Sequence record: PZ379182.1
Length of the DNA: 46,134 bases
Reading direction: 5' to 3' (one strand)
DNA from: a phage
Shown here: positions 1-39,139 of the stretch, piece after piece
How positions within the stretch are numbered: the stretch's first letter is position 1
Layout: every line of letters begins with the position of its first letter
Position numbers and translations under genes: made by a program
Notes under the pieces: model-generated
Database searches by the model: none
The model's input: the letters and a program-made list of their open reading frames with translations, nothing else
Told to the model about the DNA's origin: nothing

Positions 1-237
1 GTTATCAGAAGTCTTTTTACCGCTTGAACTATCAAGAGTGTCAACCTTAGAGTTCTTCACTTCAGCCTTTGCGCTGGAACTTGAATCAACCTTATTAGTT
101 ATCCCCACTCCAACCTTGTTATTCTCCGCACCTGCTTGAGCGCTAATCTCTGGCCTACTACCAATCAACCCGGTCAGCGCAGATGTTGCCGAGCAACCAG
201 AAAGTATAATTACCGCAGCAATTAACGCAGCCTTCAT
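1..237 (-). CDS. spanin, probable unimolecular (u-spanin-like) outer-membrane lipoprotein; N-terminal part only, truncated by window edge
   Basis: ATG at 235-237 overlaps the endolysin stop (ATGA); translation MKAALIAAVIILSGCSATSAL has a signal peptide with lipobox LSGC; sits last in the holin-endolysin-spanin order. Confidence 0.55.
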   Translation of the reverse strand, partial: MKAALIAAVIILSGCSATSALTGLIGSRPEISAQAGAENNKVGVGITNKVDSSSSAKAEVKNSKVDTLDSSSGKKTSDN

Positions 238-719
238 TTACCCACCCCACTTAAGCATAATTTAATCTCCTCGTTGCGCCTGTTGACGAGGCCTTTAACA
301 ACTTTTAGCTTGCCATTTACTCGAGCTTTATTCCAGGAGGCGAGAGCATTACAACCCTCTTCAATCTTGCCCTGATTAATCAGCCTTACTGCCGTTGACT
401 TCCTCATTGCAGCGCCACCAACGTTGTAGCTAAAGCTGATTAACGCCGCCCTTGTCTGTGGAGAGATTGGGTAAGTTACTGCATCCTGCACATACTTTCC
501 ATGAATCTGGATGTGTTTCTCCAGTAAGTTCCTGCACTCCCTTGCACTGTACTTTTTACCCCACACCACATCAGGACCAGTGATACCTGAACAAACCGTA
601 GGAATGCCTGCAATGTCCATGTAAGGCTTGTATTCCACACCTTCTACTAGCTCAATAATCGGCGCTGCGATGTATATTGCCACAGCCGTCGCTGCACTAA
701 TTACCAGCTTCTGCTTCAT
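234..719 (-). CDS. SAR endolysin (phage lysozyme with N-terminal signal-anchor-release domain)
   Basis: 161-aa ORF; hydrophobic Ala/Ile-rich N-terminus then lysozyme-like core resembling phage 21 R-type SAR endolysins; start overlaps holin stop (TAATG). Confidence 0.85.
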   Translation of the reverse strand: MKQKLVISAATAVAIYIAAPIIELVEGVEYKPYMDIAGIPTVCSGITGPDVVWGKKYSARECRNLLEKHIQIHGKYVQDAVTYPISPQTRAALISFSYNVGGAAMRKSTAVRLINQGKIEEGCNALASWNKARVNGKLKVVKGLVNRRNEEIKLCLSGVGK

Positions 720-934
720 TACTTACTCCTAATATTGATAGCTGTCTTTAAATCTCCTGACTCTAGCGCCTTCCTAATCGCCTGGCTATCCTTAAACTTC
801 CAATAAGCTCCCCACAAACCGAAAACGACTAGAGCTATAAGACTGATTATTGCGATTGTCATTTGACCAGTTGCGGCACCAGTTACAGCAGCGCCGCCGG
901 TTGATGCCGTAGCGGCGTTAATTACTTCCCTCAT
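719..934 (-). CDS. holin (small membrane protein, pinholin-like)
   Basis: ORF 719..982 in track; internal ATG at 934 is preceded by AAAGGTGA RBS giving about 71 aa with two hydrophobic segments; directly upstream of the SAR endolysin. Confidence 0.55.
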   Translation of the reverse strand: MREVINAATASTGGAAVTGAATGQMTIAIISLIALVVFGLWGAYWKFKDSQAIRKALESGDLKTAINIRSK

Positions 935-1008
935 GTGATCACCTTTAAATGCTAATTTGTCAATACATAGTGCAAATATCATACATTAGGCGGTGGCAAA
1001 TTATAAGC

Positions 1009-5159: not shown

Positions 5160-5393
5160 TTAATCCTCCATCGTGAATGATTTGTTGGCGATAATGTCTT
5201 GAGACTTCTGGTTTTTACGGTGTGTGATTCTCAATGGGGCACGGAATAGATGTGCATTTGTCATAATCATTCTAGCATTACGCAATCTGCCAATTCTGAA
5301 TGCCTCAGTCCTGTTCTCGATGTGTGTTGAGCAGAAACGCCTTCCATTTAACAGAGCAAACGCGATGGTCTGATTCAGGGAAGAATGTTTCAT
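5160..5393 (-). CDS. hypothetical basic protein
   Basis: 77-aa ORF; start overlaps helicase stop; Arg-rich, could be spurious. Confidence 0.3.
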   Translation of the reverse strand: MKHSSLNQTIAFALLNGRRFCSTHIENRTEAFRIGRLRNARMIMTNAHLFRAPLRITHRKNQKSQDIIANKSFTMED

Positions 5394-7159
5394 AAGCTCG
5401 GAATCTTATCTCCACTATGAGCCATAACCTCATATGAAGCAACAATCCCTGACTGGTTCTTTGTTAACCCAATCTTGAAGTCATAAACTCGCAACCAGTC
5501 CCCCTTACGATACATTTTTCCTGATAACTTAGCATTCGGGTCTATGAGCATCTCACCACAGCATCTGCAATTCTTAGCTGCAATATCATTCTTCTCACCG
5601 CATCCTTTCTTAATGATAGCTTTGGTCTGTGGGTCCGCTATATCTTCACACAGTCTAAACTGAAAGAAGTGCTCACAGCGCTTCCAGTCAATTACGTTAT
5701 TGCAGCGCCTGGCTAATGGAGAGTTCACATAAGAGCATACCTGACAGATTCTTGGCTCATCACCACGCTTTCTTGCTGACCTAAATTTCTGGTCTTGTAC
5801 CTCTTCTATAATTGGGTCGAAGTAAAGTTCAGCCATATCATCAAGCGTTCCAGCAAAATCAAGAACAACATGGTCATCTTTTACCATTCCAGCTTCTTTG
5901 TGCTTCTTCTTAAGGATACGCATACCACGACCAAGCAACTGAATGAGTAGAGTAATGCTACCAACCTTCCTCAGGATAATGCTTGTATCCCACGGGGGGC
6001 AGTTTACGCCAGTTGTGAGGCAACCAATCTGAAATATGAACTTATATTCTCCGTTGGCTGCTTTCTCAAGTATCTCCCTACGCTTTTTCTCACCTGTAGA
6101 GTCAGTAACTATGGCCCAAGTAACACCTTTAGGTAGCGCGCTCAGCCGCTTCAATCACAATGCTGTTTTCCAGCGCAAGTTACCAATGCAGCATTCCTTG
6201 TTTCCATAAACTTAGCAGCAAATCCCATTATCTTTTGTGTCATCGTTTGGTTTTCGTGAATCTTTGCAGCCATCGCATCCATTTCTTTCTTGCTGAAGTC
6301 CTTAACCCCATCACTTCCATCAGGAGTGAACTCACTAAGGTCGTAGCCCAAATCACCAACTTCACCGTAGACAGTAGGAACAACGAACCCCAAGTCAACA
6401 AGGTAGCTGGTTGGCACTTGCATTACAGTTTTGCGCCAGAATCCACGGACATTTGGGTTACTAACTACAATGTGGTCGTTGTTACGGTACGGGCTACCAG
6501 TTAACCCAAAGATACGAAGTTCGCGACCGTACTTCTCCTTGCATCGACGCTTCATTTCGGTAATGATTAACGTGTATTGCGCGCGACCAGTGCCAAGCAA
6601 GCCCGGTATTCACACCATCCTTAAAGACCATCTCACCCTTCTTCGTGCTCATCTGCTCGAATGTTTCCTCATTCTCTTCAGCTTCTACGATATCCATATG
6701 GTCAACCATATGACATTCATCTATCGCAATAACGGCAGGAACATAGTCACCAAGGCCCTTAAACAAGCCGTTAGCAGCTGTGCCCTCACTAGCCACTATG
6801 GTTGGGTAGTAAACTGATTTAACGTTAAGGCCAGCGCAATAGACGCTATTACGGATGCCGAAGTTACGAAGCTCTTCTGAGTTCTGGCTGATTATCTCTG
6901 ACTGGCGAGAAAGAACCATATAAGGAAGCCCAAGCTGCTCCATGCGCTTACCAATCATAGCAAGAATAATTGTCTTACCCGCAGACACCGAGAGGTCTGC
7001 GATAAATGGGGCCTCGTACTTTCCAATAGCCTTTCCGATTGCATCAAATGTCACGCACTGGAACTCGTAAGGTGTTATCTCTCCAAACTGATAATCTTTC
7101 TGAATCTGTTTAATTCTTTCTTTATCGAAATTTGCAACCAGCTTCTCGATAGGCAACAT
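5390..7159 (-). CDS. superfamily-2 DNA helicase (DEAD/DEAH-box type); reading frame interrupted twice
   Basis: Track ORFs 6494..7159 (motif I SVSAGKT, motif II DECH), 6151..6600 (LTGSPYR, motif IV-like ALVTCAGKQH) and 5390..6154 (motif V TTGVNCP, motif VI QLLGRGMR) are consecutive parts of one helicase in different frames; the two downstream track ORFs begin at TTG right after stops in their own frame. Confidence 0.7.
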
Positions 7160-8756: not shown

Positions 8757-8822
8757 ATACCTGAAAGATGATACAATCCACTTTAGCAATTAGTGCTACT
8801 TTACAAATGGAGACTTTACACA

Positions 8823-11351
8823 ATGGCAATTTATGACTTAGGAACAGCGTCGCTAGCCGCAAATGGCGAGGTTACTGGCGTCGGGACAACATGGAAAGCA
8901 CCACTTACACTTATTCGTGTAGGTGCAACCATTATTTTTAAAACCAGTCCACTTAAAATTTATACCATCTCTGAAATCATCAGCGACACTCAGATTAATG
9001 TTTACAACCCTAATTCTGAAACTGTTCCTGCCGGAACTGGTTACGCGATTCTTGCTCACGATGGCATTACCGTTCAGGGTTTAGCTCAGGATGTTGCTGA
9101 GACTCTGCGTTACTATCAGTCAAAGGAGACTTCTATTGAAAGTTTGCTGCAATTTATCGGGCAAGATAATTTCGATTGGCCTCGCTTCGAGCAATTAGCA
9201 AACCAATCAGTAACAGGGGCTGCCGAGTCTTTAGCTAGCCAGATTGCTGCCGCAGAGAGCGCCGCTACTGCCGTTAGCGCAAGGGATACAACCACATCAG
9301 CGAGAGATGCTACTATTGAGGCAATTAATAGTGCTGGTGATGCTGGCACAATGGTAACTCTTGCCAATATGGGTATCGGTGGCTCGCTTACACCTCAGTT
9401 GACAGAACTTGACTGGAATACGTTTGATTTCAAATCAGGAGCTAGATACCTATGCCAAAAGTCAGCAATGATCAACGCTCCAGAGGTGATAAATATAACC
9501 TACTCCGATAGCACGCTTTGTGCGATTGAGGTTAAGTCAGCAAGGGGGATTACTGGTGTTAAGAACATACAAGTGTCAGCATCAACCGGATCCGATAATA
9601 CGTACAGGTTGATTGATTTAACTCAGACTGGCACGGCACCAAACAAAACTTACTATTCAAGAGAGGCTCTTTATGTCGCATCAGGAAGTCAGGTTGGCGG
9701 CGCTAGCGCCCAGCGAGTAAGAGGCTTGCTTGATGTTTACTCAAAAAATGAGACTTTTCAAAAATCATTGAATTTATCTGATGTTGCAGATAAAGCAAAA
9801 GCAAGAACCAACCTTGATGTTTACTCAAAGAGCGAATTATCATCAATTTTAAATACAGATTCAAAAAGCACATCAAGCTATAGCGGCTCAATATCTTCAG
9901 CAATAGAAGCCGCTGGCGATGGCGGGTCGGTAGTTATAAGCCCGGGAACTTATGAGAGTAATAACTACTCCTTTGCTGGCAGGAACATATCAGGCTCTGG
10001 ATATAATACCGTAATAAGTGTTAAACCTTTTGAAACCGGACTCACCTCAACGCTATCGGTTCCGCACTGGAGGCAAAAGCATTTATCGGATTTGCAGTTT
10101 ACAGGTACTGCAATACAAGGTAATAACGGCTTTCAATTCCCGGATGACCCTTATGCTGGAAGGGTTGTATTGGATAGGCTTTACTTCAATGACCTGGATG
10201 TTGGTATAAGGAAAAATGCTGGCAACATTGGAAATACCTACAGAAACGTAAGTATTAGAAATGCGAATTACGGGTATCGAGCAAAAGCTCATGACGAAAT
10301 GCATATAGGAGCGGACACTTTATACGGATACCACTCAGATACAATCTCTCAATATTCAGTAATGCTAGATGCGACAAGCACAAGTAGCGCAACGAACCCT
10401 GGCGCTGGAGGAATTGGTGGGTGGTGGATTAGGGATTCAATAATGGAGGCCTCTGCTGGCGGCGGTATAAGGTTAAAGAATAAACCTGGAGATTGCCCAA
10501 CATCACCTTGCGGATTGTCTAACGTATGGTTTGAAGCGATAGCAACTGGTGGGGCAATTAACGTAGGTGAGGGAGCTGAACTCCCAAGGGTTTTGAAGCT
10601 CATCGATACGTCCGTTTTCTTTGCTGAGCATTCTTATATTAATAACATTGAGTTATCAAATTCAAACCTTGTAACTTATGGGTGCAGGTTTGATAACGCT
10701 GATGGGCACCAAAGTTTCTCTCTTGATTCGAACAGTATTATTTTTGCTAAGGATGCATACCTGAATGGCTCTTCAACATCAAACGTTATAGTTGAGTCAC
10801 TGGTATCACAGACAGCCAAGATAACGGGTACATCTGACTTATCTGTTAGAGGATATGTTACTAAAGGTCGAGTTTTTAACCCTGATTCCGGAACTGTTTT
10901 AGTAAGGAGGCCTTTTGGTACTGGTGGGAACAACTTTGGTGGAACAGGGTCGGCAAGTGAAGGTTCTGATACAAGGGGTATACACTCGCAATCATCTGGA
11001 TACTACGAATTGGCTGGTGCGGCTCAGTACGAATTGATAAATGGTGGCTTTAATATAACTTCCGGCAAATGGTATGCTTGGGGTATTTCTGCAAACAGGA
11101 TTCAAGGCGGTGCTGATGGTATTATAAACATTTTTGGTAGCGCATCATTAGGAACTGTATTCACAGAAGCTGGTAAGTGGGTTCATACATTTGGCGTTGG
11201 TAAGGCTTCGGTTTCTGGCGTTGCAAACCTTAACATTAACCTCAATGGATTAACTGGTATGGTATTAAGCCTTGCTGATTATTTTGTTGTAGAATTTGAT
11301 AATCAAAGGGACGCCTTGATATTTGCAAACTCAAGAGTTTCTCTTGCATAA
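8823..11351 (+). CDS. tail fiber / tailspike protein with candidate enzymatic central domain
   Basis: Track ORF 8793..11351; ATG at 8823 (MAIYDLGTASLAANGEVTG...); Gly/Ser/Thr/Asn-rich repetitive beta-type sequence typical of fibers; enzymatic domain is inferred, not shown. Confidence 0.65.
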   Translation: MAIYDLGTASLAANGEVTGVGTTWKAPLTLIRVGATIIFKTSPLKIYTISEIISDTQINVYNPNSETVPAGTGYAILAHDGITVQGLAQDVAETLRYYQSKETSIESLLQFIGQDNFDWPRFEQLANQSVTGAAESLASQIAAAESAATAVSARDTTTSARDATIEAINSAGDAGTMVTLANMGIGGSLTPQLTELDWNTFDFKSGARYLCQKSAMINAPEVINITYSDSTLCAIEVKSARGITGVKNIQVSASTGSDNTYRLIDLTQTGTAPNKTYYSREALYVASGSQVGGASAQRVRGLLDVYSKNETFQKSLNLSDVADKAKARTNLDVYSKSELSSILNTDSKSTSSYSGSISSAIEAAGDGGSVVISPGTYESNNYSFAGRNISGSGYNTVISVKPFETGLTSTLSVPHWRQKHLSDLQFTGTAIQGNNGFQFPDDPYAGRVVLDRLYFNDLDVGIRKNAGNIGNTYRNVSIRNANYGYRAKAHDEMHIGADTLYGYHSDTISQYSVMLDATSTSSATNPGAGGIGGWWIRDSIMEASAGGGIRLKNKPGDCPTSPCGLSNVWFEAIATGGAINVGEGAELPRVLKLIDTSVFFAEHSYINNIELSNSNLVTYGCRFDNADGHQSFSLDSNSIIFAKDAYLNGSSTSNVIVESLVSQTAKITGTSDLSVRGYVTKGRVFNPDSGTVLVRRPFGTGGNNFGGTGSASEGSDTRGIHSQSSGYYELAGAAQYELINGGFNITSGKWYAWGISANRIQGGADGIINIFGSASLGTVFTEAGKWVHTFGVGKASVSGVANLNINLNGLTGMVLSLADYFVVEFDNQRDALIFANSRVSLA

Positions 11352-16305: not shown

Positions 16306-19300
16306 TTACCACACTCCAACTACAACCCTTCCACCATTCGGTAAATTAACTGTAATTCCATTATTGTTAATCTGAACAGTGTTGTTGGTTCCGTTAAACG
16401 CAAAGTTGCCGTTACTTGCGTACAGACTACCCCTTACAGTTGCATTGTTAAGTTCCGCACTGCCTGACTTATCAATGGCCCAACCCTGAGAACCAGCCAC
16501 GTAGTTATTAGATTGAATCCGGTTACCAATCTTCGCGTTAGTGATTGAACCATCCTGAATCACTGCGCTTTGAATGAATACCTGATTACCTTCAACTACG
16601 AAAGGCAATGACCACTGACCGGATCCAGAGCTAATGCCGTTACTGATTGCGAACCTGTTAGCATCGAAAATGAACTGACTACGAACGTTGCCACCAGATC
16701 CGGTTAGTTCCATGCTCATCCCTGAATTGTACTCAACCCCATTGTAAGTAAGACCCAGCTTAATGCCGTACTGCGCACCAATTGAATCAGCTGTAACGTA
16801 AGTATCCAGCTTCTCATTTAAAGCAGCTTCATTCTCACCGAGCCTTGCAGATAAAGCAGTGTCCGCAGTGGTCCTTGCTTGCGTTTCTTCCGCTAGCGCC
16901 GTATCAATCCTTGTCAACGAAGCCACAATCTCATCATCAATCTGCGCTTTAAGCTGCGTCAGAGCCTCTACGCGAGCCCTTTCTTCATCGGCGATAAGAT
17001 TCACAGCCTGAACAAATTCGGCCTTCCTCTTGCCGTTTTCCTTCGTCATTCTACGCACGTCACCATCATTAGCCAGGGCGTTCTCAATTATTGATTCCGC
17101 TTGCGCCTGAATAGCTCCGTTTGACTCAATGGCATTCTGTTGGAGATACTTGAACCCATCTGAGTTTTCTATATCAACCTTAATATCACCAATGATTGAC
17201 GACACATCATCGCTTGCCATACCCCTTACAAAATCAGTCCATGGTGAGACGTTACCAATCTTGTCAATCAGTCGCGCCCTGTACCAGATAACCTTTCCTG
17301 CCGGTAATGTAGTGTGCCAATACTCGTAACCCGGGTAAGGAACTAGCGTTAACAAACTGGCGTTCTCTGGTGAGTAAGTACCATCACCATTGTCGGCTAC
17401 TTGCTGCAATTCAGTGTATGACGTATCGGCTGAGTTTTCAGGGAAACCCCACTTAACCCTAATGCCAAATATTTCATCATCTGAAGCTGTGATTACCGTA
17501 GGCTCAGACGGCGTTCCAATTTTACCAGTTAGGCTTACTGAAACAATGTCAGACCATGCGGATACGTTTTCAGTATCAGAAACGGCCCTTACGCGAACCT
17601 GGTAAATTCCGGCATAGATACCTTCAATATCAACCTCTGTGCTTGCTGTGCGCGGCACGTTAATCCAGTTTCCGTTCTCCTTGCGCCACTGGACCGTGTA
17701 GGTTTTCGCGTACTGAACCTTGTCCCACGTGATTACCATTGTCTCAACTGATAAACCCTGAACAACCTTACTGTAACTGCTAACCTGAACATTCTCGGGT
17801 GCCAGTAATGTATCTGGCTCCACGATTGAAGTTGGCCTATCCTGAATGTTTACGCCGTAATCAATTTCGTCGTATTTATTCGGGTCGTACTCGACTGCCG
17901 TAATGCTGTAACCGAACGCATCGTCTCCATCGCTGTCTGCTTTTTGAATCCCGGTCACAACATATTGCTGAAGAGCAAGATTTTCCTTATCAATCGCAAA
18001 TACTGTGTCAGGCTGAGGAGTAAAGCTAAACGCTGTATTAAGTTGCAGCGTCATACCATCTTCAGATACAGATGCAATGGTCCTGTACTCTGGCATTCCA
18101 TCAGGCTTGTTTATTAGAATCCTGTCGCCAGCAGTAGCATCAATCTTAAATGGCACAAAAACTTGCAACCCACTTACTGACTCGATACGACCAGAAAGGT
18201 TAAGGGTGTAGTTGCTAGACCATGCCTGGTCATTAACTGCAATAACCTCACCAATCATTGGAATCATACCTTCCAGACCAGTAGTGAAACTAATAGTCTC
18301 GCTGCGAATGTTCGTCTTTAATAACCAGCGCCCTCGGCGGTTTGCCTCACTCCTGCGAGTACATCCAATAGCTGTAAGGTCGACCGGGTTGTAACCAAAA
18401 CGCCTTGTTGCCTCTAACTCGAATACTGGCTCAACATCCTGTTGGTATGAGTTTTCAACGTCATCAAACTGAACGTTGGCAACCGTGTAAAGTGACTTAT
18501 CGCTACCAAATGTACGGTTGAACAATCCATCAACAACGTTGTCATTGGTGAATACGTACGATGGTTGACGCGGCTTATCGACAACAATCCCTATCTGCTC
18601 GCCGTCATAGAATGTCAGCCCACGGAAGATAGAGCAAATATCACGGATTACCTGATATGCTTCAACTTTCTGCTGAATGACAACATCACACAGGTAGCGC
18701 GGCTCAACTCCACCCTTACCATCTGGAACCATCTGGTCACAGAATTGCGCCGCCTCATACAGACCCCACTTATCAATAGTAATGCCAAGCTCTCGCTGGT
18801 CAAGTCCGTAACGCTGATTCGTCACCAAGTCGTAAAGAACCCACGCCGGGTTATTGGAATACGCCATCTTAAAGGTGCCGTTCCAGGTTCCGCTGTAAGT
18901 CCTTGTCTCTGGGTTGTAGTTAGTTGGAACGCGAATCAACTTCCACTTCTTCTTGATTGAAATCGTCGGGATTCCGTTAGGGAAGAGGTCAGAACTGAAC
19001 TCAACGTAAACCAGCGCTGTAAGTGGGTAGCGGAATTTAGCATCAATTACTTCCTGATAGGTCGTAATTTGCATGTCGTTAACCAGCGTCGAACTTTCTG
19101 AATATGCCGTGATCTTACGAACCCTCACCAACGCACTCGAGAACTCAGCAGGAAGGTTAACCCTGATACTTCTGTCGTACCCGCTAGTTGTCTTGCCATT
19201 AGCTACTCCGCGCGTGTACTCAGTGTATGTAGCGCCATCAACGGACAGGTCAATCGCATACTCGCAAGTGGTACCGTTAAGATCTCCGTTACTTTCCTGA

Positions 19301-19731
19301 TTAATCAGACGAGGCCAAAACAGCTTAACCCTAATCGCTGATAGCTGGGTGTTATTAACAGCAATGATGTAAGGAGTTGAGTTTTTAATCTCCCTGTTCA
19401 CTTGCACTTCCGAGTTAGCACCCTCTAGCCCGGCAATGTAATCCTGACTCTGTGTGCCAGGGCGAAACTCTGCCGTTACACCCTCGTAGTTGTATGTGCC
19501 ATTCTGGTTCTGTACAGGAACGTCAGCAAGGTAAAGGTCCTTTAGGGAGAATGAGCTATCAACCTCACCATCAGAAACAGCTAGCAAAACCTTAACCTTG
19601 TTTACGGATATCAGGTTATCAGGCTGCTCTACAGGTTGGTGCTGCTTTGGCTGTCCGCCCTTACTTCCATAAATCTTAATTTCTTCCGCCATATCACATA
19701 GCTCCGCATTTGTTTTGACCATTTGTGCCAT
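16306..19731 (-). CDS. central tail fiber / host specificity protein, lambda J-like
   Basis: 1141 aa; segment YSGTWNGTFKMAYSNNPAWVLYDLVTNQRYGL closely parallels lambda J; last gene of an M-L-K-I-J-like series. Confidence 0.9.
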   Translation of the reverse strand: MAQMVKTNAELCDMAEEIKIYGSKGGQPKQHQPVEQPDNLISVNKVKVLLAVSDGEVDSSFSLKDLYLADVPVQNQNGTYNYEGVTAEFRPGTQSQDYIAGLEGANSEVQVNREIKNSTPYIIAVNNTQLSAIRVKLFWPRLINQESNGDLNGTTCEYAIDLSVDGATYTEYTRGVANGKTTSGYDRSIRVNLPAEFSSALVRVRKITAYSESSTLVNDMQITTYQEVIDAKFRYPLTALVYVEFSSDLFPNGIPTISIKKKWKLIRVPTNYNPETRTYSGTWNGTFKMAYSNNPAWVLYDLVTNQRYGLDQRELGITIDKWGLYEAAQFCDQMVPDGKGGVEPRYLCDVVIQQKVEAYQVIRDICSIFRGLTFYDGEQIGIVVDKPRQPSYVFTNDNVVDGLFNRTFGSDKSLYTVANVQFDDVENSYQQDVEPVFELEATRRFGYNPVDLTAIGCTRRSEANRRGRWLLKTNIRSETISFTTGLEGMIPMIGEVIAVNDQAWSSNYTLNLSGRIESVSGLQVFVPFKIDATAGDRILINKPDGMPEYRTIASVSEDGMTLQLNTAFSFTPQPDTVFAIDKENLALQQYVVTGIQKADSDGDDAFGYSITAVEYDPNKYDEIDYGVNIQDRPTSIVEPDTLLAPENVQVSSYSKVVQGLSVETMVITWDKVQYAKTYTVQWRKENGNWINVPRTASTEVDIEGIYAGIYQVRVRAVSDTENVSAWSDIVSVSLTGKIGTPSEPTVITASDDEIFGIRVKWGFPENSADTSYTELQQVADNGDGTYSPENASLLTLVPYPGYEYWHTTLPAGKVIWYRARLIDKIGNVSPWTDFVRGMASDDVSSIIGDIKVDIENSDGFKYLQQNAIESNGAIQAQAESIIENALANDGDVRRMTKENGKRKAEFVQAVNLIADEERARVEALTQLKAQIDDEIVASLTRIDTALAEETQARTTADTALSARLGENEAALNEKLDTYVTADSIGAQYGIKLGLTYNGVEYNSGMSMELTGSGGNVRSQFIFDANRFAISNGISSGSGQWSLPFVVEGNQVFIQSAVIQDGSITNAKIGNRIQSNNYVAGSQGWAIDKSGSAELNNATVRGSLYASNGNFAFNGTNNTVQINNNGITVNLPNGGRVVVGVW

Positions 19732-22272: not shown

Positions 22273-25245
22273 TTAGTTGTAACCGCGCAAGAACTGATAC
22301 GCTCTGCCACCCTGTTGGAATGATTTGCTGATTTCCTCAGCCACGATAACCTTAACTCCAGATTCTATCGCCTTAGCATCATTTCCGCCACCGATTCCAG
22401 AGTTTACGTTAACCGTCACACCACCAACACTGACATTAGTACCGCCGACAACCCCACCATTAGCATAACCAGATGGCCCACCAACAGCACCTCCATTTGC
22501 ATAACCGCGCATCAGCTTGTACAGATTCTTAACACCAATCCTGCTTGTAGCCTCTTTTGTGAATACAAACTCACCACGGTGAACAGTCCCAGCAGGTTGA
22601 TATTTCCCGCCATCACCAGTATAACCTCCGCCAGCAAAACCAAGCGCACTACCAATTGAACCAATAGCGCCGCCAGTACCACCAAAACTACTCAGACTTG
22701 ACTCAATGGCCTTAACAATTAAGAGTTGAGTCGCAATCCTGGCAATCTGTTTCAGGATCTCAACGGTAAAACTCCTGAAGTCTGCCGTGCCAGTTGTTAC
22801 AAGGCTGGTGATCTGCTCGGTAATTCCGGTAAAGACGGAAGTGGTCAATTCACCAGCGATAGAGAATGCATCTGTCGCGCTCTCTGCCCAATTAGCGAAG
22901 GATGATTGCACACCAGCAAGCCAGTTTTCACGTAGCGCATCCTCTTGAGCATAGAAATTACGCCTGGCTTCTAGTAATGCCTGAAAATCAGTATCATCTA
23001 CAGAACCACCTTTGTTTACCTGATTGGATTGAAGTGCCTGAAGCTCTTTTGCTCTTTGCTTCTCCCTGTCAGATAAATTAGCAGCAAGTGAAAAATTATT
23101 TGCTTCATTTGTAATCTGCACAGTCTTCTTAAGGTTGTCATCAAGTAACTTGTTTGACCTCTCCTGAAGCACAATCTGGTCACCAAGTTCAGCCTTCTGT
23201 TTAGCCTGTTCAAGAATGATATTCTTCTGCGCAAGTAGCTTAGCCTGTGATTTTGTAAGCGTACCATCCGCTTGTCTTTGTTCAAGTATTGCAAACTTCG
23301 CTTCTTCCTGGAATAACTGCTTTCTTTCATTGCTTATTACATCATTTATCGTTCTGTGCTCTTGTAAGACCTTTAACTGAGCCTGAAGTGCAAGAACGCC
23401 AGATTCATAAGATAAAGTTAAATCCCTTTCTTCTTTTACAGCCTTTTTCCTCTCACTCCTTGCTTTCTTTATCGCATCATACTCATCGGCAAGAGCCTTC
23501 TTCCTTGCTGCAAACTCCTTATCGGTTGATGCATTATTGCCGCTAAGGTTGGTGTTATTGTTGTTCTCGACATAACCAAGCTCACCCTTCCTGATTCTCG
23601 CATCTCGCTCAGCTATGCTTTTTGCTAACTCCTCATTTTGCTTCTTAGCTGCATCAACAATCTTTTGCTGCTCAGCGATTGCTTCATTGCCTAAATCGCC
23701 AAGTCCAGGTATTGACTGAAGTGTCTTGGTTGCTGCTATTGCAAACTCGCCCAATAGGATATCGCCGGAGTTTATTAACGACCTTATCTGCTCAATAGTC
23801 CCAGCAACAACGTCAGTTATTAAGTTAAGCGCCCCAAGCGTCCTTTTGCTTATATCATCCCAAATCTCACTTACAAACTTCCTGAAGCTATTCCATGCGC
23901 TCTCAAGAGGGTTAAGGCTTAGTGCTACGTCTGCTAGCCTGTTTTCCATAACGTTAGCGAATAGCTCAGTAGCTGCGGTTACAGCCTCTGTTTCTCCAGC
24001 CGTCTTCCTGATATTCTCAATGTATTTCAATTGCCCAGACTGAAGGAAGTTGAACTGCTTATCGAGTGCAATCAGACCTTGAATTGGGTCCTTTGTAATC
24101 TGATCAAAGTATCCAAGAATAGTTTTCGAGTCTGTTGATGTTACAGTTGCCCATTGTGCTGTCGCCTTGGTTATCTTATCTATCTGCGTAAGAGTCAGAT
24201 TACCGTTTGCTACCAGGCTGTTAGCTATCTCCTGGATAAGTCCGCGCGTGGCTAGTGTTGAACTCTCAATTCCATCAACAACCTGATTTATCTGCGCTGT
24301 CGACGTGATAGTTGAGTTGCCAACCAATGTTATCGTTGATGCTAGTCCGCGAGTGTTCTTGTCAGCCTGATAAGCAGCAACACCAAGAGCGCCGAGGGCC
24401 AAGCCCAAAGTCCCAACAACTGCCGTTAATGGGTTAATGGCTGCCAGTGCGAACCTTGCGGTGTTAGCAATACCACCAAAGCTATCCTTAATCTGCCCAC
24501 CCTGCTGAATTGCAATGAGCCAGATTGGGATGCCGCCAGCAAGAGATGTTCCGATATCTGTAATCTGAGCTGGTAGCTGTCGTATTGCTTGCTTGTACTG
24601 ACCGGCGCTTAAACCTGACTTAACAAAAGCGGAGCTTTGCTTCTGTAACTGAACAGCAGATGCCTCGGCGGCCTTGCCAATCCTGTCGATAATCGGTGCC
24701 GCTTGGTCACTAACTCCGAGTTGAGCAGCCTTAAGTTGAAGTAGTTCAGTCCTTGTAAGGCTTGCTGCATTCGCCTCGTTCTCAAGAGATTGAATGAACT
24801 TTTGCGCGGCTGCTGTTGCCTTTTCTTTATCTATTGATGCCTGTAGTGCAGCTCGCCCTTCCTCGCTAAGAGCTGCTTTAGACCTGTTTAGCTTATTTAT
24901 TTGAGTTTCAATAACAGAGCCAAGCCGGAAGAACTCATCATCAGGAACTATTCCAGATTCAAACGCCTTGTCTAATTCAGTTGCTGCTTTCTGAAGCTTC
25001 TGGAATTTAGCGGCAGTTGGGTCTATGACTTGTTGAAGTGATGCGAAAGATTTGCGCTGCTCCTCAAGCTGCCTTGCGGTGTCCCTTGCTTGAGTCTTGG
25101 CTACAAGTTCGGCGTTGACGAAGCTATTAATGCCTGTTGCAGCTTGCTCGTTTGCTTGCCTGAATTTCTGTAATGATTGTGTACCCTTATCGACCTGAGC
25201 GACGTCGACGGCTAGCGTGATACCAGCAATTTCGTTAGTTGCCAT
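22273..25245 (-). CDS. tail tape measure protein
   Basis: Track ORF 22273..25275; ATG at about 25245 preceded by GGAGGA; about 990 aa, coiled-coil-rich with Gly-rich C-terminal repeats. Confidence 0.85.
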   Translation of the reverse strand: MATNEIAGITLAVDVAQVDKGTQSLQKFRQANEQAATGINSFVNAELVAKTQARDTARQLEEQRKSFASLQQVIDPTAAKFQKLQKAATELDKAFESGIVPDDEFFRLGSVIETQINKLNRSKAALSEEGRAALQASIDKEKATAAAQKFIQSLENEANAASLTRTELLQLKAAQLGVSDQAAPIIDRIGKAAEASAVQLQKQSSAFVKSGLSAGQYKQAIRQLPAQITDIGTSLAGGIPIWLIAIQQGGQIKDSFGGIANTARFALAAINPLTAVVGTLGLALGALGVAAYQADKNTRGLASTITLVGNSTITSTAQINQVVDGIESSTLATRGLIQEIANSLVANGNLTLTQIDKITKATAQWATVTSTDSKTILGYFDQITKDPIQGLIALDKQFNFLQSGQLKYIENIRKTAGETEAVTAATELFANVMENRLADVALSLNPLESAWNSFRKFVSEIWDDISKRTLGALNLITDVVAGTIEQIRSLINSGDILLGEFAIAATKTLQSIPGLGDLGNEAIAEQQKIVDAAKKQNEELAKSIAERDARIRKGELGYVENNNNTNLSGNNASTDKEFAARKKALADEYDAIKKARSERKKAVKEERDLTLSYESGVLALQAQLKVLQEHRTINDVISNERKQLFQEEAKFAILEQRQADGTLTKSQAKLLAQKNIILEQAKQKAELGDQIVLQERSNKLLDDNLKKTVQITNEANNFSLAANLSDREKQRAKELQALQSNQVNKGGSVDDTDFQALLEARRNFYAQEDALRENWLAGVQSSFANWAESATDAFSIAGELTTSVFTGITEQITSLVTTGTADFRSFTVEILKQIARIATQLLIVKAIESSLSSFGGTGGAIGSIGSALGFAGGGYTGDGGKYQPAGTVHRGEFVFTKEATSRIGVKNLYKLMRGYANGGAVGGPSGYANGGVVGGTNVSVGGVTVNVNSGIGGGNDAKAIESGVKVIVAEEISKSFQQGGRAYQFLRGYN

Positions 25246-25275
25246 TTTTCCTCCACTAGTAGCTAATAGCACCAA

Positions 25276-34329: not shown

Positions 34330-34386
34330 GCGTGAAGTAACTATAAGCCATCCTTGGCGGCGCGTCTTTAGCAAAACGTGCTATTT
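34330..34386 (-). promoter_or_regulatory. intergenic cassette copy downstream of terL
   Basis: Minus strand AAATAGCACGTTTTGCTAAAG, GCCAAGGATGGC hairpin, TTATAGTTACTTCACGCAAACGAGAGGAG. Confidence 0.55.
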
Positions 34387-36000
34387 GATGCCAGCGAGGC
34401 GCATCATCCTCGATTTAGGGTCTTCTGCAATGTTCAGTACCAGGTTGACAGCCATTGTCAAACAGTCTATCTGGTCATCGTGAACATGTGAATCATCTGC
34501 CGTGAATGCCGCAATCTCCGTTAGCAAGCCATTAAGCCAAGTAGCAGACTCCGGAAGGATTACGTTACCAGCTTTAATCTGCGGCAATGCACTCATTACG
34601 CGAGTCAGCTTATCGTTATCAGGAACGTACGGCTCGATAGGCGTTCGCATAACCCTTCCGGCTGATTGAATCAGGCCAATACCAGAGGCTTTCTTCTCGA
34701 TGATGATTTTACGAAGGATACCATCTATCTGATTGGATGCCCTAGCCATCTTCTCGAAATCCAATAACTCAGCCTCGAGCTCAGGAGCTTCAAATTTACC
34801 GCGCCGCTGGTCAAGCAGATAAATCTTCCCATCCTTATAACCCCATAGCTGCATGACGCTAAAGTCGCTGTAACTTTTGGTTGTCATCGCAGTATCAAGG
34901 ACCATAAACCTGTAATCGTACTTAGCTGGCGGTCGCAGAGTGTCGCTAATGCGTTGAAGCCAGTCTACGTTAATCAGGTTGCCGCCAAGTGCTACTGGTT
35001 CTTGCTGATACTGGCTAAGGAATGTATAGCTATCAGAATCCCACATTGCAACTAGGTCGTGAACAGATTCCTTGCCAGGGAAATAGCTATAGTACCTAAC
35101 ACCATCACGCTCAATATATTCGCTTGATAGAACGTCATCAATGAATTGCTGCTTAATCCAGTCAGGGAGCGTGTCGACGTAATTCTCAGTTACGAGCGCC
35201 GGTATCTTAATCAAGTCGAAGCTAATACCCATACCGCCATTCATCATGAACCACGTACTATCATTCACATGAAGGCGCTGTTGGATAGAGATAATCGGCG
35301 TCGCCTTGCCTTTTACCGAGCTAGCCCTACGAGAACGTATGGTGTTCTTTAGCATCACATGGTTGTTGGCACGGAATACAGCCGAAAGCATATCTGCAGG
35401 TTTGTCAAAATCATCTAACAGTACTGCGCCACTATATGAATCTGTTATATACCCACCCCTTGCGCCGGTAATCTGACCGCCAGCAGCTTTTGAGATTGAT
35501 TCAAACCGGACCTTTCCAGACTCATCAAGGACCTGTAACTCATCGTCCTTGCACGTGCCGAACTTGCAAGGGAATAACTCCTGGAACTCAACAGACTTAA
35601 TCAGGTCGCGCACTCGCTTGGAGTTGCGCTTAACCAGTGAGTCAGCAAATGAGATGTTGAGGTTCCTTACCTTCTTTAGCTTCACCATTGAGTATGCTGG
35701 GAAGTGAATTGAGGCTATCTCTGTTTTTCCGCTACCTGGTGCTATGTTAATGATAGTGTCCTTGCGCTCACCTGCGATAATCTCGTCAATGATTCTGCAA
35801 AGGTATTTATGATGCCAGTTTGGGATGTACCGCTCTCCCTGAGTTAGCTGGAACCACACCCGCAAGAATCCCTCGAAGCTATGAGTGGATATCGCCTTAA
35901 CCGCCATCTTTTCTGCTGTCGTCATTTCCTCCCAAACTAAATTAGCCATAATTTCACCAATCCAACCATCACGCCAATTAAGAATCCAGTTGTGAAGCAT
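34381..36000 (-). CDS. terminase large subunit
   Basis: 539 aa; ATPase Walker A-like INIAPGSGKTE, C-terminal nuclease region; follows terS. Confidence 0.9.
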   Translation of the reverse strand: MLHNWILNWRDGWIGEIMANLVWEEMTTAEKMAVKAISTHSFEGFLRVWFQLTQGERYIPNWHHKYLCRIIDEIIAGERKDTIINIAPGSGKTEIASIHFPAYSMVKLKKVRNLNISFADSLVKRNSKRVRDLIKSVEFQELFPCKFGTCKDDELQVLDESGKVRFESISKAAGGQITGARGGYITDSYSGAVLLDDFDKPADMLSAVFRANNHVMLKNTIRSRRASSVKGKATPIISIQQRLHVNDSTWFMMNGGMGISFDLIKIPALVTENYVDTLPDWIKQQFIDDVLSSEYIERDGVRYYSYFPGKESVHDLVAMWDSDSYTFLSQYQQEPVALGGNLINVDWLQRISDTLRPPAKYDYRFMVLDTAMTTKSYSDFSVMQLWGYKDGKIYLLDQRRGKFEAPELEAELLDFEKMARASNQIDGILRKIIIEKKASGIGLIQSAGRVMRTPIEPYVPDNDKLTRVMSALPQIKAGNVILPESATWLNGLLTEIAAFTADDSHVHDDQIDCLTMAVNLVLNIAEDPKSRMMRLAGIK

Positions 36001-36067
36001 GTAGCCGCTATCATGTAATACGCCAATAATGCCTTAATCAATTTTATCATACCAACCCGCCATGTTC

Positions 36068-36592
36068 TTACAGTTTGCTAATCACAGACTCCAGCGCTTC
36101 CTTCATCGTATCGACGTCGTTAGCTGAAGAGTTGTTGCTGATGGTAATCTCCTGCGGCTTGTCGATTCCAAGCTCTTTGGAAATCATGCCAGGGTTAATG
36201 ATGCCAGATGCTGCAAGCTGGTATTTCTGCTCGCGAATCACGGAATCAATGAACGCAATCACCTCATCATAACCAGCCGACTTCCTCCATTTCTCGATAG
36301 CGCTATGGGTGACACCGCAGTAAAGGCAGAATCCGGTTAGCGTGAAGACTCGTGGTTTGTGCACCAGGCTCTCTTTTACCACACCCTGGAAGCTGGCTGT
36401 CTCGATTGCCTTGATTGCCTGGTCCTCAGCCCATGAGAAGTATTTCACGGCGAATTCAAATAGCTGTTCGGGTGTCATGCTTCGGTTTTTGGCTAGCGTT
36501 GTAATGTCTGAGTACTTTTTATTGTACATGGCTTTAAAGTTGCCAGAGCGGACCTTTTCTTGCGCCTGACTGGTGAAGTTTTCGTCTTTCAT
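36068..36592 (-). CDS. terminase small subunit
   Basis: 174 aa; AAGGAGG RBS; immediately upstream of terL. Confidence 0.7.
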   Translation of the reverse strand: MKDENFTSQAQEKVRSGNFKAMYNKKYSDITTLAKNRSMTPEQLFEFAVKYFSWAEDQAIKAIETASFQGVVKESLVHKPRVFTLTGFCLYCGVTHSAIEKWRKSAGYDEVIAFIDSVIREQKYQLAASGIINPGMISKELGIDKPQEITISNNSSANDVDTMKEALESVISKL

Positions 36593-36638: not shown

Positions 36639-36664
36639 GAAAAAAAGCCCTCAAGAAGAGGGCG
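36639..36664 (-). terminator. intrinsic terminator upstream of the packaging genes
   Basis: Minus strand GCCCTC-TTCTT-GAGGGC followed by TTTTTTT. Confidence 0.7.
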
Positions 36665-37129: not shown

Positions 37130-37205
37130 TGGTGTTCCGCACTGGACTCGAACCAGTAACTAAGACTTAGGAGGTCTTTGCGTTATCCTGTTACGCCAGC
37201 AGAAC
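37130..37205 (-). tRNA. tRNA-Arg (anticodon CCU, reads AGG)
   Basis: 76 nt folded by eye: acceptor GTTCTGC/GCGGAAC (one G-U), D-arm GCGT/ACGC, anticodon stem AAGAC/GTCTT with loop CUCCUAA, T-arm ACTGG-TTCGAGT-CCAGT, encoded CCA. Confidence 0.8.
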
Positions 37206-37393
37206 AAATCCTTGAGTAGCGATTGCGCTATTGAAGGATTGCTGGTTACGCTTCCAGCGTCGAGTTTCTCGACCGATTTCGCCATATACGCTGCTTAGTG
37301 AGCTATGGACTTTGTGTTGCGCTCCGTGCGCCGTTGCCACTTGGTGGCCTCGTCTGTCTACAGTTGTTAATGTACCAGTCAGGGTTAGATGTG

Positions 37394-37591
37394 TCAACTT
37401 ACTCTTTCGAATTTCCCATAATTCTGGTCATACGGGTAGTCAATGCTCACCAATTCGCCATTATCGCTGTAGCAGAATACGTGGCCAGTCTTCGATACCT
37501 TTTCGACCTGGTAATCGCATCCATCCATGAAGTCATCCGATGCCGCCTTTGTGCACTTGATAGCATCGCCTTTCTTAATAATTTTATTCAT
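37394..37591 (-). CDS. hypothetical protein
   Basis: Track ORF 37394..37594; ATG preceded by GAGGAG. Confidence 0.5.
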   Translation of the reverse strand: MNKIIKKGDAIKCTKAASDDFMDGCDYQVEKVSKTGHVFCYSDNGELVSIDYPYDQNYGKFERVS

Positions 37592-38390
37592 CAAAACTCC
37601 TCAGTTATAAGCATCTTGCCACAATCTTTGCACTCGTAGAATGCACATGCTTTCACCAACTAATAGACTTGGTTTTGTTGACTCGTGGTACTTGCATCGT
37701 TTAGCGCTTTAATGTCAAAATCGTTAATGATTTGATGTGAACACGTAAACGTAGCGATGCTTGTGATTGATTTCTTTATTATTCATAAAGGCTATTCCCA
37801 TTCTGATCATGGCCTACGCGACATTTTCTATAACCAGCAATCCACACAAATTTGTCTCGAGCAATTAGTGTCGAAACCGGCCCCCACACTTGAGTAATCA
37901 GCGCTGCCACTACCTTATCATCTTTCTTCTTTGCGCCCAAGTTTGCCGTATTCGTCATTCAGCTTATCAGCCTGTCGCTTGACTGCGTTAAAGTATGCGT
38001 CGTCTAATCCGAACATTATTCATCATCCTCCTCGCATGCTATGAGACTATCGCAATTATCACGGCATCGCAAATGCCTTTGGTGCTTTAGCTATTCGTGG
38101 CTGTAAATCAAGTCAGCAATGACTTAACAAATTCGATCTGGAGTAACCATCTCATTCGCTTCGTATGGCTCTATGCAATCTCTTCGTTGTATGAATGAGT
38201 TGAACGTTATCATGGCAAATCCGATGCGCTGTCATGCAATTACGCAATTCGTGCGTATGCCATTTCTTATCTTCACGCTCTTTCCATAGATTTCAGTTAG
38301 CTCGTAAGTACATTCATGGCATCTTCGCCAGTCTTAGCCTCATCCATGCATCCGTGCAGGCCCACTGGCTTGGTGTTTCGTAGTTATCCA

Positions 38391-38716: not shown

Positions 38717-39139
38717 TCAGATTTTGTTAATTTGCTCAAACTTCTCAAACCAGAAAACAACTGGATCCTCCACTATGGAGATGAGGCCGAACCGCTCTGC
38801 CGTGCGAAAATTCATGCTGCTCTTACGCCCGCGAGCTACTTGAAGAGACACCTGTTCCCTGAACATTTCAAGGGAATAGCAAGTTTTCATGAGGTTGCAT
38901 GGAGCACATGCAGGGTAAAGGTTTTCCATTCGATCAGCTTGTGGTCGATTAAACTCACCTGTCGCCTTCAGCTTGAAAGTTCCTTTCTCCGCTGCCTTCA
39001 TGCATACCTCAGATTTACGTAGCACCGGTTCAACATGGTCAGCATGCCAGCCTTTCTCAGGTAGTTCACACCCACAATAAGCGCAGCGACCACCGAACTT
39101 GCCCTTCAACTCTTCCCTTTGAGATTTGCTTAATTTCAT
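38717..39139 (-). CDS. HNH endonuclease (zinc-ribbon type)
   Basis: 140 aa; CAYCGC...H..H...CAPCN motif arrangement. Confidence 0.8.
   Translation of the reverse strand: MKLSKSQREELKGKFGGRCAYCGCELPEKGWHADHVEPVLRKSEVCMKAAEKGTFKLKATGEFNRPQADRMENLYPACAPCNLMKTCYSLEMFREQVSLQVARGRKSSMNFRTAERFGLISIVEDPVVFWFEKFEQINKI

Follow-up and report, generated by a model that had tools for sequence, protein, structure and literature searches.

The 46,134-nucleotide stretch of phage DNA analysed here (the window) carries on its minus strand a gene for a tRNA-Arg with anticodon CCU, which probably yields a functional elongator tRNA that adds decoding capacity for AGG and supports the translation of late proteins; its expression, processing, charging and effect on fitness we infer from sequence comparisons. 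The original prediction had described a 76-nt cloverleaf with CCA encoded and CUCCUAA as its anticodon loop, and had named ARAGORN as a means of checking it. ARAGORN called a tRNA-Arg with anticodon CCT at this very position (Table 1), as the single tRNA of the window, and together with the Rfam match and a direct reading of the sequence it bore out the predicted fold in every detail, as well as the identity of a tRNA-Arg(CCU) that decodes AGG, a rare codon of the host.

In a covariance-model search, Rfam family RF00005 matched at 37133-37205 on the minus strand with 58.9 bits (gathering score 29) and E = 2.6e-10, spanning model positions 1-71 of 71 with 0 non-standard pairs. Read from the sequence, the first part of the RNA is GUUCUGC-UG-GCGU-AACAGGAUA-ACGC-A-AAGAC-CUCCUAA-GUCUU, followed by AGUU-ACUGG-UUCGAGU-CCAGU-GCGGAAC-A-CCA, with the anticodon at 37169-37171 (AGG on the plus strand). 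The cloverleaf is complete, with a 7-bp acceptor stem, a 4-bp D stem, 5-bp anticodon and T stems and a 7-nt anticodon loop. U8, A14, G18-G19, U33, G53-U54-U55-C56, A58 and C61 are all present, read at the DNA level as T8, A14, the GG of the D loop, CT 5' of the anticodon and the T arm GGTTCGAGTCC.

Table 1. Features of the window that bear on the tRNA-Arg(CCU) gene, its transcription unit and its codon usage
Feature	Position	Strand	Basis and remarks
HNH-domain ORF	38717-39139	-	Pfam PF01844; followed by small ORFs toward the tRNA
ORF	37394-37594	-	Last ORF before the tRNA; followed by a 188-nt non-coding gap
Sigma-70-type promoter-like site	37369-37397	-	TTGACA, 17-nt spacer, TG-extended TACATT; 10/12 in consensus scan
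Structured 5' leader RNA, ~157 nt	37206-37362	-	Between promoter and tRNA
Leader hairpins	~37349-37337, 37332-37320, 37309-37282, 37273-37259, 37258-37241, 37240-37206	-	
tRNA-Arg(CCU) gene, 76 nt, CCA encoded	37130-37205	-	ARAGORN, Rfam RF00005, stem covariation
Small ORF, 70 aa	36886-37098	-	ORF list; GGGGGA ribosome-binding site; starts 31 nt past the tRNA 3' end
Small ORF, 62 aa	36717-36905	-	ORF list; final gene of the putative tRNA transcription unit
Intrinsic terminator-like hairpin	36647-36663	-	Terminator scan; GCCCTC-TTCTT-GAGGGC, then T7; upstream of terS
terS	36068-36592	-	Pfam GP3_package, PF16677
terL	34381-36000	-	Next in minus-strand order come the portal and the remaining virion genes
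Tape measure gene	22273-25275	-	PHROG 24; 23 AGG of 41 Arg codons
Central tail fibre J gene	16306-19731	-	PHROG 31; 22 AGG of 52 Arg codons
Tail fibre gene	8793-11351	+	PHROG 24092; 17 AGG of 33 Arg codons, one AGG-AGG tandem
Endolysin gene	234-719	-	PHROG 7; 6 AGG of 8 Arg codons

For the analysis of selection, 18 distinct tRNA-Arg sequences at the syntenic position were compared, taken from the window, its GenBank relatives and IMG/VR loci. Pairs were counted on a structural parse, since MAFFT, given a variable loop of 4 or 5 nt, opened gaps within stems when aligning the tRNAs. The parse shows a single non-standard pair among the 306 cells of the acceptor, anticodon and T stems, and both sides of the pair have changed at 2-71 (UA/CG 9:9), 7-66, 27-43 (AU/GC), 28-42 (AU/CG), 29-41, 30-40, 49-65 (AU/GC), 50-64 and, in the D stem, 12-24 (GC/UA). 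A chance match is ruled out, since the 18 homologues keep every stem through such compensatory changes. Score, cloverleaf, universal nucleotides and compensatory changes agree in pointing to a bacterial-type elongator tRNA.

The identity set of E. coli ArgRS comprises A20 in the D loop, C35, U36 or G36, and A73 or G73 as discriminator. A20, C35 and U36 are invariant in 17 of the 17 aligned tRNA-Arg sequences, with A or G at position 73, and U36-A37-A38 is invariant among the homologues. The window gene has all of these identity nucleotides and would accordingly be expected to specify an arginine-accepting tRNA, its charging being likely on the same grounds.

A blastn search of 5,426 E. coli genomes with the tRNA returned no match, even at E <= 10, and identity to the host genes argW and argU is 67% and 62%, respectively; the absent match and the low identity to argW rule out a recent host copy. 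The D arm and anticodon arm, searched as an exact pattern that misses divergent relatives, gave 0 matches in 185,579 bacterial and archaeal species genomes. By these comparisons the tRNA-Arg is an old phage gene and not a recent host capture. The T1-like phage family is virulent. An attP fragment of a temperate phage was considered and rejected on three grounds: there is no host match, the tRNA is complete and not a 3' fragment, and no integrase was found among the 20 largest ORFs of the window (PHROGs).

Identity of the region is 95% to Escherichia phage AN_ECEAS and in part about 90% to phages TR3, Rao1 and CY1, which all belong to the Braunvirinae, and the window is classed as a T1-like coliphage of the Drexlerviridae, subfamily Braunvirinae (an Rtp-like T1-type siphovirus). 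Pfam matches to terS and to the HNH-domain ORF confirmed that the tRNA lies between terS-proximal small genes and the HNH region. The two small ORFs that follow the tRNA are without a Pfam domain; the 70-aa ORF is the orthologue of rtp16 and AHP24_77 as annotated in relatives, and the orthologue of the 62-aa ORF is annotated as a DUF3667 protein in TR3. A 41-aa ORF at 37160-37285 ('hypothetical protein' in phage IMM-001) was not accepted as a gene, given its overlap with the tRNA and the indels that break it in relatives. Elsewhere in the window, terS and terL are adjacent, 67 nt apart (36000-36068), and in TR3 and AN_ECEAS an HNH homing endonuclease gene lies between the two. The helicase homologue (PHROG 16) at 5390-7159 on the minus strand is apparently split, with three overlapping ORFs that differ in frame (6494-7159, 6151-6600 and 5390-6154), its T1 counterpart being one gene of 672 aa; this could reflect frameshifts, sequencing errors or a real split.

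The original prediction had also placed the tRNA within a leftward operon. The minus-strand gene context agrees with this, but the tRNA is not simply embedded in it, having its own promoter-like site and a structured leader. The hexamers and the spacing of this site are kept in 17 relatives of both subfamilies. Transcription is predicted to start near 37362, and megablast homology to TR3, Rao1 and CY1 stops at about 37361. The tRNA-Arg thus probably has its own conserved sigma-70 promoter. At the other end of the putative unit, T1 has an annotated terminator at the place before terS that is equivalent to that of the terminator-like hairpin of the window.

The tRNA-Arg gene is already known in the T1-like phage family, as about 114 GenBank records hold it, many of them annotated, and it was published in 2014. 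Specifically, 114 phage records contain a match to the 76-nt sequence, 39 of them at 90% identity or more, and almost all come from Escherichia or Shigella T1-like phages. Three records are at least 99% identical, including AN_ECEAS and IMM-001 at 100%, both of which lack a tRNA annotation at this site. Copies that are 92-97% identical are annotated as tRNA-Arg in AKS96, Sf12, phiEB49 and AHP24, and the annotation is also found in AHS24 and TR3, while many other GenBank records leave the gene unannotated. Niu et al. (2014) list '1 arginyl-tRNA' in AHP24, AHS24, AHP42 and AKS96 (PMC4070988), and the paper on phage MSK reports 'one tRNA-arg' (PMC8421802); neither analyses its function. According to the latter paper, the gene is absent from Rtp and DTL. 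Contrary to this, ARAGORN found a tRNA-Arg(UCU), unannotated in GenBank, in both DTL (locus L006, 9121-9198) and Rtp (locus L007, 4893-4969). The order of early-region small ORFs, tRNA, one or two small ORFs and terS recurs in TR3, AN_ECEAS, AHP24, SU57, OzMSK and JeanPiccard. With its homologous sequence and syntenic position, the window gene is assigned to the Drexlerviridae tRNA-Arg locus.

No sense codon of E. coli is rarer than AGG, which is read there by only two minor tRNAs, Arg4 (argU, anticodon UCU, AGA and AGG) and Arg5 (argW, anticodon CCU, AGG only) (PMC4652775). Codons were counted over ORFs of at least 100 aa, by the same method for the window, an E. coli sample and T1. In the window phage AGG is the top arginine codon, with 141 of 519 arginine codons (27.2%; 12.9 per 1000 codons); its share is 4.6% in a 50-kb sample of E. 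coli K-12 and 10.1% in T1, which is without the tRNA gene. Genes were then classed by PHROG as late (virion, packaging, lysis) or early (DNA metabolism). AGG makes up 114 of 321 arginine codons (35.5%) in late genes of the window but 12 of 143 (8.4%) in early genes (odds ratio 6.0, p = 1.2e-10), and the share of AGA does not differ between the two classes. In T1 the corresponding shares of AGG are 10.2% and 7.0%, a difference that is not significant (p = 0.26). Early genes thus look similar in the window phage and in T1, and the shift is confined to the late genes of the tRNA carrier. The overall enrichment and the late/early count, on which the original prediction had staked its suggestion of codon-usage compensation, thus both came out in its favour, and the contrast with the tRNA-less T1 lends this suggestion further support.

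Within the late genes, those for the tape measure, J and tail fibre together hold 62 AGG among 126 arginine codons, which would make the tape measure gene a main user of the tRNA. The two most abundant virion proteins avoid AGG (0 codons for the major head protein, 1 for the major tail protein), so most of the virion protein by mass does not require the tRNA. In the lysis region (234-982, minus strand) AGG is nearly the sole arginine codon, with 3 of 3 in an 87-aa ORF beside the endolysin gene; the endolysin of T1 has AGG at 0 of 10 arginine codons. This AGG-rich region may link the timing of lysis to the supply of phage tRNA. Tandem AGR codons were considered as a sign of dependence and discarded, because the window and T1 have 4 each, although AGG-AGG occurs in the window only.

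For comparison across relatives, a TerL-based search retrieved 80 T1-like loci, 68 of which cover the tRNA site. Among these 68, the AGG share of arginine codons is 0.14-0.29 in tRNA-Arg carriers and 0.03-0.14 in non-carriers, an association that is not phylogenetically independent. The carriers are essentially one clade plus ESCO41, so one shared history could produce much of it. GC content was rejected as the cause of AGG richness: in a regression on AGG share, GC had no effect (t = 0.9) and tRNA presence had one (t = 10.6), and all of 14 GC-matched T1-like non-carriers (GC 0.454-0.465) have shares of 0.089 or below. At arginine sites conserved between orthologous proteins, AGG in the window corresponds to a CGN codon in T1 in 19 cases and the reverse is seen once (binomial p = 4e-5); for AGA the counts are 6 and 5. 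Only the late/early contrast and the contrast between CCU and UCU carriers within the clade escape the problem of shared history, and these in part.

The latter contrast rests on two versions of the gene, for which the window was compared with relative loci L005-L007, L012, L015, L067, L092, L098 and L103-L106. The CCU version is carried by the window, TR3, AN_ECEAS, phiKP26, phiEB49, e4/1c, Sf12, AHP24, AKS96 and Opt-719, the UCU version by Rtp, DTL, IME542, CEB_EC3a, SU57, JeanPiccard, OzMSK, ZL19 and ESCO41. The two have the acceptor and T arms in common and differ in the D and anticodon arms (78% identity between window and Rtp), and over its core (positions 8-48) the UCU version shares 93% identity with E. 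coli argU. Usage of the two AGR codons follows the version carried: CCU carriers have more AGG than AGA and UCU carriers at least as much AGA as AGG, with AGG/(AGG+AGA) at 0.52-0.70 and 0.43-0.55, respectively (small groups, p = 0.02), and at conserved arginine sites AGG was gained 22 times in the window against 10 in Rtp. We found no earlier description of this dimorphism with matching codon usage. With a cognate codon commoner than in the host, concentrated in late genes and tracking the tRNA among relatives, the gene looks like a codon-compensating tRNA in the sense of the model summarised in PMC10264068.

The window itself is of mixed type. Most Braunvirinae carry the UCU version, the window leader is 80-86% identical to those of Rtp-type phages and about 53% to those of Rogunavirinae, and the ORF downstream of the tRNA resembles rtp16; the tRNA, however, is 92-97% identical to the CCU gene of Rogunavirinae and 66-82% to the Rtp-type gene. 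This pairing of Rtp-type flanks with a Rogunavirinae-type CCU gene suggests that the tRNA allele was replaced by recombination. Further tRNA-like genes were seen at the locus in three relatives. In phiEB49 (L011, 3275-3351), the tRNA-Arg(CCU) is directly followed by a gene that ARAGORN calls 'Val(AAC)', with a near-identical T arm, the acceptor-stem pattern of the Arg tRNA and a diverged anticodon arm; it looks like a tandem duplicate of the tRNA-Arg. In L009 (8633-8706), a tRNA-Trp(CCA) is inserted between leader and tRNA-Arg. In Opt-719 (L102, ~480-580 of the locus), a tRNA-like element of about 100 nt, not called by ARAGORN, lies downstream of the tRNA-Arg, with the T arm GGTTCGATTCC and with ends that are complementary to each other (GCTCACG…CGTGAGC-ACCA).

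The leader of the window is more than a spacer: it folds better than its shuffled versions (z = -2.8) and, in the predicted precursor, independently of the cloverleaf. RNAalifold with ten Braunvirinae-type leaders gave 36 pairs, 11 of which stay paired through changes on both sides. In this structure 98.5% of the cells are paired, compared with 22-42% when the partners are slid by 1-3 columns; the slid versions retain 0-1 covarying pairs, and none of 500 shuffles scores as high as observed. The structure is formed at the RNA level, since G-U pairs occur on the tRNA-sense strand. Leaders of Rogunavirinae differ in sequence but share, beside the tRNA, two covarying hairpins whose loops (…UGUGAAA… and …CGUAA) are conserved; leader length in relatives is 144-242 nt. 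A permissive Rfam search (E <= 10) assigned the leader to no family, returning the tRNA only, and nhmmer did not find it in tRNA-less relatives. A scan of IMG/VR for an 18-nt leader motif (16 specified bases) gave 28 loci, 21 of which are not known tRNA-leader carriers; these have no credible match to the leader HMM and no adjacent tRNA-Arg, and are taken to be chance matches for this reason. In both the nhmmer search and the IMG/VR scan, the leader was found only directly upstream of the tRNA-Arg and fused to it. A decayed tRNA as its source was discounted, as ARAGORN found no second tRNA and the tRNA-Trp of L009 does not align to the window leader. We found no earlier description of the leader, the literature search on small RNAs of Drexlerviridae being too broad to be informative.

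In the mechanism that we propose, host RNA polymerase would transcribe the unit from the sigma-70 promoter at 37397-37369, giving a precursor that consists of the 157-nt structured leader, the tRNA and the two small ORFs and stops at the terminator ahead of terS. Cleavage by RNase P would give the tRNA its 5' end, and host nucleases would trim the 3' end, whose CCA the gene itself encodes. Charging would fall to host ArgRS, a step that we propose because A20, C35 and U36 are present. The phage tRNA would thus add capacity for a codon that is read in the host by two minor tRNAs only. AGG is the main arginine codon of the late genes, for tape measure, tail tip, tail fibre, head assembly, terminase and lysis, with early replication genes staying host-like in their codons, and the tRNA would accumulate during infection and support the translation of late proteins. 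The benefit may be modest, since T1, at 10% AGG, propagates in the same host without the tRNA, and high AGG usage could be a consequence of the tRNA (relaxed selection) and not the reason for keeping it.

A different role was put forward by the original prediction, namely that phage tRNAs replace host tRNAs cut by anticodon nucleases, and this finds no support here, the anticodon loop being identical to that of host argW. More broadly, the tRNA might serve counter-defence, as a resistant replacement for a host tRNA-Arg cut by a defence system or toxin (colicin D-like, retron or PARIS-like), which we consider improbable. To our knowledge, no E. coli system targets AGR-reading Arg tRNAs specifically. 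Phage tRNAs do act in this way elsewhere, according to papers as cited in PMC12916289 and PMC10264068; colicin D and retron Eco2 cut Arg tRNAs (PMC10264068, PMC12916289), retron Eco2 doing so, among other host tRNAs, by nicking acceptor stems in T5 infection (PMC12916289). A nuclease that reads the acceptor or D arm could spare the phage tRNA, because its body is only 67% identical to argW and without a blastn match in E. coli. However, the nuclease-evasion model (van den Berg et al. 2023) rests on differences from the host tRNA in the anticodon loop (PMC10264068), and the window tRNA shows no such differences from its host isoacceptor in loop or cleavage site: loop CUCCUAA and G39 are those of argW, and the whole anticodon arm of the UCU version is that of argU. 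Nor does counter-defence predict AGG enrichment in late genes or the match between anticodon and codon usage.

The conserved leader invites another reading, in which decoding is secondary and the tRNA is a site for RNase P and 3' trimming that frees the leader as a stable small RNA and fixes where the downstream mRNA begins. The independent folding of the leader, its 11 covarying pairs and its constant fusion to the tRNA agree with this. Phage T4 makes stable small RNAs that are co-transcribed with its tRNA cluster, which we also count in its favour. Yet a mere processing site needs neither invariant ArgRS nucleotides, nor an anticodon restricted to CCU and UCU, nor codon usage that tracks the anticodon, and it is the tRNA that is conserved where leader sequence differs greatly between the subfamilies, making this reading unlikely too. 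The leader is most plainly read as a processing leader that RNase P would cut off from a decoding tRNA. Somewhat less remote, though still doubtful, is the idea that the tRNA makes up the 3' half of a conserved RNA gene in two parts, that the leader is released by RNase P as a stable small RNA with its own function and that leader and tRNA together form a translational timer for late-protein synthesis and lysis, for which the near-exclusive AGG of the lysis genes and its heavy use in tail genes would speak. That the gene is a neutral passenger or decaying relic, acquired by chance and without present function, might be argued from the many GenBank records that leave it unannotated and from T1 doing well without it. 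Its retention at the same position in the ~114 records, its conserved promoter, the compensatory substitutions in every stem and the co-adapted codon usage make this scarcely credible, and we regard it as excluded by the stem covariation.

The tRNA itself changes little in what is known, being a further clean example of a virulent phage tRNA for a codon poorly read by the host. The case is nevertheless tidy, with a single tRNA for a single rare codon and relatives that lack the gene (T1) or carry its UCU version. Because of these tidy states, and because the late-gene shift is absent in T1, the phage group offers a convenient natural test of compensation against anti-defence. What is added here is a late-gene shift to AGG for which T1 serves as control, two anticodon versions (CCU and UCU) with matching codon usage and a putative allele swap in the lineage of the window, and the conserved structured leader; these additions are modest and all come from sequence analysis. 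Of the elements seen, only the structured leader might open a new direction.

Compared with known systems, the gene is closest to the tRNA-Arg genes of Rogunavirus and Rtp-like phages (AHP24, AHS24, AKS96, phiEB49, Sf12, TR3, MSK, JeanPiccard), of which it is the same gene at the same site upstream of terS; nothing essential differs, apart from the combination of flanks and allele described above. With E. coli argW (tRNA-Arg5, CCU) it has in common the anticodon, the identical anticodon loop, A20, C35, U36, A73 and the same decoding task, but is only 67% identical to it. The tRNA-Arg(UCU) of phage T4 (PMC4652775) is likewise an AGR-reading tRNA of a virulent coliphage, with the matching codons commoner in phage genes than in the host; unlike it, the window tRNA stands alone and not in a cluster, reads AGG only with its CCU anticodon and has its own long structured leader. 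The tRNase-evading tRNAs (T5 tRNA-Tyr against retron, T5 tRNA-Lys against PARIS, mycobacteriophage tRNAs against VapC) resemble the window tRNA in having a body that differs from the host isoacceptor, but are defined by differences in anticodon loop or stem that the window tRNA does not share.
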